Positions 7,839 to 45,570 of a stretch of DNA of 64,000 bases are shown here, piece by piece. The number at the start of each line of letters is the position of its first letter. Position 1 is the stretch's first letter. The translations under genes and the position numbers were made by a program. The notes under the pieces are model-generated. The model worked only from the letters and a program-made list of their open reading frames with translations, made no database searches and had not been told where the DNA came from. The DNA comes from Podarcis filfolensis (taxonomy: Eukaryota), in NCBI GenBank assembly GCA_964270895.1, contig OZ185442.1. One strand, 5' to 3'.

Positions 7839-45570
<37,732 letters not shown>

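Follow-up and report, generated by a model that had tools for sequence, protein, structure and literature searches.

The window analyzed here, a single stretch of 64,000 nucleotides from Podarcis filfolensis (contig OZ185442.1), carries on its minus strand a full-length and apparently young LINE of the APE type. The element is 6,296 nt long (32136..38431), is bounded by a target-site duplication, and has both of its ORFs intact. The two 12-bp copies of the duplication form an exact pair (5' copy, 38432..38443; 3' copy, 32124..32135; all coordinates of the element and its flanks refer to the minus strand), with two exact matches in the window against 0.01 expected. Between them lie a 450-nt 5' UTR (37982..38431, read directly), ORF1 (35732..37981, 749 aa), ORF2 (32366..35722, 1,118 aa), and a 3' UTR (32136..32365) that contains a short hairpin, AATAAA, and an (ATTC)n tail with 11 copies. 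The element combines an AP endonuclease and a reverse transcriptase, a target-site duplication, a simple-repeat 3' tail, and a predicted RNA-binding ORF1 domain, as is expected of an autonomous APE-type LINE. No second copy spanning the junction between the two ORFs is present within the 64-kb window. The sole other match in the window is an old, 5'-truncated relative on the plus strand (4004-4963) with a (TAAA)n tail and a similar 3' motif, whose matching region (4004-4678) is 30% identical over ORF2 residues 888-1109.

In architecture the element would fit the RTEX (RTE-X) clade, as it has two ORFs, a tail of short tandem repeats, and a Cys/His motif at the C-terminus of its endonuclease-reverse transcriptase (EN-RT). 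RTEX elements have been reported in Anolis (PMC7561263). Some of them are described as carrying an esterase (PMC3905857), whereas ORF1 of the present LINE has a predicted RRM-like fold. The literature that we searched for the clade name yielded no description of this LINE family.

The ORF2 protein consists of an AP-type endonuclease (residues 12-259, PF03372), a reverse transcriptase (residues 551-804, PF00078), and a C-terminal Cys/His knuckle-like motif. Its closest named relative, among 46 matches in 8,000 scored candidates, is a Podarcis muralis protein with 64% identity, and a protein atlas search with ORF2 returned only unnamed RT clusters. In a tree of ORF2 proteins (46 rows, with P0038 left out as too short and named references absent), the element joins relatives P0001-P0005 with a support of 100/100. 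The initiating Met of ORF2 is located 14 residues ahead of the first endonuclease Asn, nearly as in human L1 ORF2p. In P0003 (48% identical), a Met is found at exactly the same 14-residue distance and is likewise followed by Phe, and Phe also follows the Met in P0008. Of the 46 relatives, 18 begin 9-17 residues ahead of the endonuclease Asn, 11 are extended by at least 25 residues, and 17 begin within the domain; these first residues are gene-caller choices and may not correspond to an AUG. P0001 starts 48 codons into ORF2, at a gene-caller internal start.

ORF1 gave no convincing match to Pfam or to the sequences of solved structures, and no usable match in the protein atlas. A structure model built on 23 sequences (mean pLDDT of 50.6) predicts a helix at residues 132-168, an RRM-like domain at residues 370-468, helices at residues 523-565, and a low-confidence tail at residues 569-749. 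The sole confident domain in the model, residues 370-468, resembles RRMs and aligns with human L1 ORF1p over 86 residues (Z of 8.5, rmsd of 2.5), a score that is tied with other RRMs and near the tool's common-fold level, with a Foldseek E of only 0.01. The pLDDT stays under 50 over residues 569-749, so this tail, which is probably disordered, would be compatible with a linker role in a fusion protein. The ORF1 family comprises at least 22 clusters (82-751 aa) without a Pfam model and displays a conserved N-terminus, the RRM-like domain, and a short conserved motif inside the unstructured tail. The stop follows the last ORF1 motif at a distance of 46-180 aa, as measured in the 12 of 24 sequences where this motif is found; many of these sequences are probably decayed copies. 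A tandem duplication of 120-126 nt within the ORF1 tail (window 35977-36225) is common to two ORF1-family clusters, P0047 and P0048.

Read directly, the minus strand at the junction between the two ORFs is GCA AAT TGA CTA AGA TCA ATG TTT. Our re-reading agrees exactly, in letters and coordinates, with an earlier note on this DNA, which had described two ORFs in a shared frame separated by a single stop. In the RNA, the order is UGA CUA AGA UCA AUG, with ORF1 and ORF2 in one frame. The ORF1 stop UGA (35732..35734), the candidate readthrough codon, has AAU as its P-site codon and CUAA next. It is followed by a 9-nt in-frame spacer (35723..35731) of three sense codons, Leu Arg Ser, in which a second stop is absent, and then by the ORF2 AUG (35720..35722), which is the first AUG past the stop in any frame, the next one being at +115. 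The only in-frame stops from 38065 to 32368 are those two positions themselves and 35734. Readthrough would yield a product of 749+1+3+1118 = 1,871 aa, the length of about 1871 aa that had been proposed. The base preceding the UGA (-1) is U, and the base after CUA (+7) is A, not the G of CUAG. No Rfam family matched at the junction.

Two further features of this region were noted. The stop and spacer form a small inverted repeat (window 35719-35739, minus strand) whose predicted pairings join the UGA to the UCA codon and the bases ahead of the stop to the AUG (pair probabilities of 0.5-0.9); decoding would melt this structure, although it could conceal the AUG from scanning ribosomes. A -1 frameshift at a U UUA AAG heptamer, 6 nt ahead of the stop, was considered and rejected, as it leaves the ORF2 frame and closes after ~32 codons, and as P0047 and P0070 carry Ser at the Leu position.

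The position of the ORF1 stop is a property of the family. The Lys-Ala-Asn end of ORF1 is common to P0047 (96%, 4 members), P0048 (90%, 4 members), and P0070 (93%, an 84-aa fragment with 3 members), such that all three of the close clusters covering this end terminate at ORF1's last residue; the agreement is seen at the protein level, which does not reveal the relatives' stop codon or spacer. Because the stop is common to three clusters, it is a family stop and not a nonsense mutation of one copy. The earlier note had named such a mutation, in what would otherwise be a single-ORF element, as one of the findings that would overturn its proposal, and this objection is now removed.

The related explanation that the family has one long ORF, broken by a nonsense mutation in the present copy, is largely refuted by these comparisons, and we consider it highly improbable. 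Besides the three clusters that stop at the same residue, endonuclease motifs were found in 0 of the 24 ORF1-family proteins. The observation that speaks for a single ORF comes from P0003, which is stop-free for at least 73 codons ahead of its Met and has Glu after the matching stop position; open runs of at least 73 codons are rare in the element's off-frames (0-0.4% of positions). The open frame of P0003 could be a natural fusion or an in-frame tail, and its residues indicate that the UGA-CUA layout is not kept at this distance (48% identity). However, the P0003 extension is unlike ORF1 tails, and with 11 of the 46 relatives extended by at least 25 aa, P0003 is not special.

The P0003 extension does contain TNVS, resembling the ORF1 tail motif. 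As an ORF1 tail it nevertheless scored -0.9 bits against the profile, with a best shuffle result of 13/200 among 22 comparisons and an hhalign probability of 0.2, and we set the relationship aside as unproven. The extension of P0036 was also rejected as an ORF1 relative (probability of 0.1), and a Pfam domain is absent there. In four relatives, P0003, P0015, P0036, and P0040, the frame stays open for 73 to about 235 residues ahead of the endonuclease, and these are possible single-ORF elements. A fused or junction-spanning protein (~1.8 kaa) was found neither in the 46 matches of 8,000 candidates, nor in 3 of 686, nor in the 22 ORF1 clusters, an absence that weighs little because gene callers halt at UGA and sometimes start internally. 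Bacterial and archaeal genomes, scanned for host DNA that might have strayed into them, yielded no DNA of relatives.

We estimated how often such a junction would be expected by chance. TGACTA accounts for 2 of the 312 stop triplets within the LINE and for 24 of 5,981 on both strands of the 64-kb window (0.4%); the corresponding window counts are 30 for UGA-CUA or UGA-CGG and 407 for plain UGA-C. The probability that the two ORFs share a frame and that the three codons between them are free of stops is ~0.29 (1/3 x 0.95^3, for a stop frequency of 0.05). The combined pattern would then arise at about 1 in 500-900 junctions, a figure to be read in light of the junction having been chosen post hoc out of a genome scan.

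LINEs require very little ORF2 protein, so a leak of 1-2% could furnish a real share of it. UGA-CUA alone is reported to give ~1.5% readthrough in HEK-293T cells (PMC4132726); on these published values a little leak at the UGA is likely, and with it some fusion wherever the LINE RNA is translated. Readthrough reportedly increases when +7 is G and when -1 is a purine (PMC4132726), and was more than halved when CUAG was changed to CUAC (PMC9841425). By comparison, the CUAA with U at -1 in the LINE appears to be a weaker context than CUAG with a purine. The layout of the junction favors readthrough in another respect. The spacer of rat and human L1 is 60-63 nt long and has two in-frame stops (PMC2241872), and reinitiation after long ORFs is described as mostly involving a change of frame, which may serve to prevent readthrough (PMC10275272). 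The present junction has neither safeguard, i.e., extra stops or an out-of-frame restart.

Folding of the RNA 3' of the stop predicts an extended stem-loop from +13 to +105 (35630..35722; U of UGA = +1), the AU-rich base of which includes the ORF2 AUG, with the AUG supplying the first pairs of the stem. Within it, an inner 11-bp hairpin (35663..35692) is predicted with a pair probability of 0.83-0.99 in every context tried. The energy of the stem-loop (-31.3 kcal/mol) was equalled by 1 of 200 dinucleotide shuffles, and 7 of 600 synonymous recodings were as stable; the stem-loop window is the most stable among 34 ORF2 windows but ranks 4th of 131 rows by z-score. Across 364 background positions of the element, the first 14 nt were paired over long range as fully at 3 and the fold was as stable at 4, with both at 0 of 364, a statistic picked after the fold was seen. 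Readthrough stimulators are reported to start at +9 to +16 in alphaviruses, where they are extended stem-loops, and at +12 in MoMLV and CTFV (PMC13517186); the +13 of the LINE, which is predicted only, is comparable.

Of the 11 pairs of the basal stem, 2 are G-C. The stem forms with a pair probability of 0.94 when folded locally, but this value falls to 0.6 when 300 nt are folded and to 0.0 with 500 nt; at 20-30 °C the 300-nt fold gives 0.28-0.49, as computed with a program that predicts no pseudoknots. When upstream RNA is included in the fold, alternative pairings displace the basal stem, although the competing upstream RNA would be covered by a ribosome positioned at the stop. The earlier note had suggested folding the downstream RNA in search of a stimulatory stem-loop, and the outcome is mixed, as a stem-loop is predicted at +13 and exceeds the null expectations, but its basal stem is gone in long-range folds. 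Furthermore, reinitiation in the silkworm element SART1 is reported to need downstream RNA structure (PMC5972666, PMC10275272, PMC3708506), so the predicted structure fits both readthrough and reinitiation.

Taken with the junction itself, these features lead us to favor, tentatively and at just short of an even chance, a selected readthrough at this junction, operating alone or beside reinitiation. Translation would begin at the ORF1 AUG and mostly end at the UGA, producing the 749-aa RNA-binding ORF1 protein, while a small share of ribosomes, perhaps one to a few percent, would insert an amino acid at the UGA, aided by the CUA context and the stem-loop from +13. The product would be a 1,871-aa ORF1-endonuclease-RT fusion in which the ~180-residue unstructured ORF1 tail may act as a linker. 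The leak would set a low ratio of enzyme to ORF1p, and the enzyme would possibly be tied into the ORF1p particle in a Gag-Pol-like manner, with parallel reinitiation at the kept AUG being possible. On this mechanism the fusion would be a working enzyme and the UGA context would be under selection. The rare UGA-CUA, the open shared frame, the stem at +13, the inclusion of the AUG in the stem base, and a stop position common to three clusters all argue for it. Arguing against it, a pure readthrough system need not keep an ORF2 Met at the usual place, the layout is absent in P0003, a fused protein was not found, and the distance from motif to stop varies. The programmed readthrough proposed in the earlier note has thus gained the stop shared by three clusters and the predicted stem-loop at the right distance, and has lost ground through the weaker CUAA and through a Kozak argument that carries little force.

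Ordinary LINE termination-reinitiation could account for the same junction, and we place it somewhat below an even chance. Ribosomes would stop at the UGA, remain bound to the RNA, and restart at the AUG 9 nt on, releasing a free 1,118-aa ORF2 protein. The RNA structure would aid this step, as it does in SART1; chance would account for both the UGA-CUA and the shared frame, and any leak would be a by-product. The AUG is at the usual place, is retained in P0003, and is the first that a ribosome would encounter after the stop. The stable inner stems begin 16-22 nt past this AUG and could keep a ribosome on it; Kozak's work is said to indicate that a stem downstream of an AUG could hold the ribosome there. 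Precedents exist in L1 and SART1 (PMC5972666, PMC2241872, PMC10275272), and the inter-ORF region is reported to be among the most variable in vertebrate L1 (PMC5381506), so many junction types arise.

The start context of ORF2 does little to discriminate between reinitiation and readthrough. The U at -3 and the U at +4 of the ORF2 AUG were correctly identified in the earlier note, which had taken them as a poor Kozak context. As an argument this is weak: the U at +4 is there because a conserved Phe follows the Met, and hence says little on AUG use, the Met occupies the position where ORF2 normally begins, and norovirus reinitiation is reported to be indifferent to Kozak context (PMC10275272), so that a poor context need be no hindrance.

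Reinitiation does, however, require three coincidences, namely UGA-CUA (0.4-0.6%), the open shared frame (~0.29), and the stem at +13 (~1%, post hoc). It also lacks two recognizable signals. The UGGGA motif of calicivirus and influenza B TURBS, situated 40-90 nt upstream of the stop in those systems, is absent from the 150 nt upstream of the UGA, where only UGGGC occurs at -92, and there is no overlap of stop and start such as the UAAUG used for reinitiation in SART1. Our ordering of readthrough and reinitiation is a judgement in which three chance-unlikely features favor the former, whereas a low prior for readthrough and the retained AUG favor the latter.

ORF2 might also be made independently of ORF1 translation, either by ribosomes that initiate internally or from an RNA that is spliced or shorter, although we regard this as improbable. 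An AG is present 7 nt ahead of the stop, as a splice acceptor would need, but it is preceded by A and has 6 pyrimidines in 12 nt, making it a poor acceptor. The 9-nt gap leaves no intergenic region for an IRES.

Like the alphavirus nsP3/nsP4 junction (Sindbis, VEEV, chikungunya), the LINE has an in-frame UGA without a second stop, CUA directly after it, and an in-frame polymerase downstream. Unlike alphaviruses, it keeps an AUG 9 nt after the stop, has a predicted structure with an AU-rich base, and encodes no protease to cut the fusion. MoMLV gag-pol likewise joins a structural ORF and an RT across one in-frame stop, but MoMLV is an LTR retrovirus with a protease and uses UAG followed by an H-type pseudoknot, whereas the LINE is a non-LTR element with UGA in place of the gammaretroviral UAG. 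The vertebrate genes OPRL1, OPRK1, MAPK10, AQP4, and MDH1 share the UGA-CUA core (PMC4132726); vertebrate UGA-CUAG genes gain short C-terminal extensions and have G at +7, whereas the LINE has A at +7 and an enzyme of 1,100 aa downstream. The mammalian L1 and silkworm SART1 elements resemble the LINE in being bicistronic, in having an ORF2 AUG just ahead of the endonuclease, and in their RRM-type ORF1. The L1-type spacer with further in-frame stops is replaced in the LINE by three sense codons, in frame and unprotected. A parallel among non-LTR retrotransposons is provided by Paramecium Group 3, in which ORF1 and EN-RT lie in one frame across an in-frame stop and readthrough was suggested from consensus sequences (PMC5405496). 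These belong to a ciliate clade, and in one table row of that report ORF2 directly follows the stop, compared to the 9-nt spacer of the LINE.

Alphaviruses and gammaretroviruses provide known cases of readthrough into a polymerase, and such readthrough has been suggested for Paramecium LINEs (PMC5405496). In the literature that we searched, mostly without subscription journals and Repbase Reports, we found no case of readthrough in a vertebrate LINE and no experimental test of it in any LINE. The earlier note knew of no demonstration in a vertebrate LINE, in agreement with our searches; for LINEs at large, the idea has a partial precedent. How the second ORF of LINEs is translated has been described as still unsettled (PMC5009743, PMC3708506); in L1 and SART1, where it has been tested, reinitiation is indicated, with L1 guarding against fusion by its extra stops (PMC2241872).

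A broader proposal, in which we have slightly less confidence than in either readthrough or reinitiation at the junction, is that an ORF1-ORF2 fusion is the main form in which this vertebrate LINE family produces its endonuclease-RT. Through alphavirus-style UGA-CUA readthrough with a 3' stem-loop, it would follow a protease-free Gag-Pol strategy: the enzyme would become an integral part of the ORF1p particle, and the rate of transposition would be set by the level of readthrough in the host (tissue, temperature, tRNA supply). The compactness of the junction (one stop, three codons, and one AUG) means that a few point changes could separate readthrough from reinitiation. If readthrough is the route in use, the element would be, as far as our searches extend, the first tested case among non-LTR elements. 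It would also demonstrate that the enzyme of a LINE functions as a fusion with ORF1p and would provide, from a vertebrate genome, an instance of a virus-type 3' stimulator.

Three other features of the window lie outside the element. A 5S rRNA-like sequence on the minus strand (window 28083-28198; Rfam RF00001, 59.5 bits) is joined to other repeat-like DNA and is a candidate 5S pseudogene or 5S-derived SINE head. The C/D box snoRNA MBII-202 (RF00324) matches the minus strand at window 73-154; presumably it is a member of SNORD68, a family that resides in an intron of RPL13. Finally, a GC-rich tandem array at window 19512-20185 consists of about six 108-nt units.
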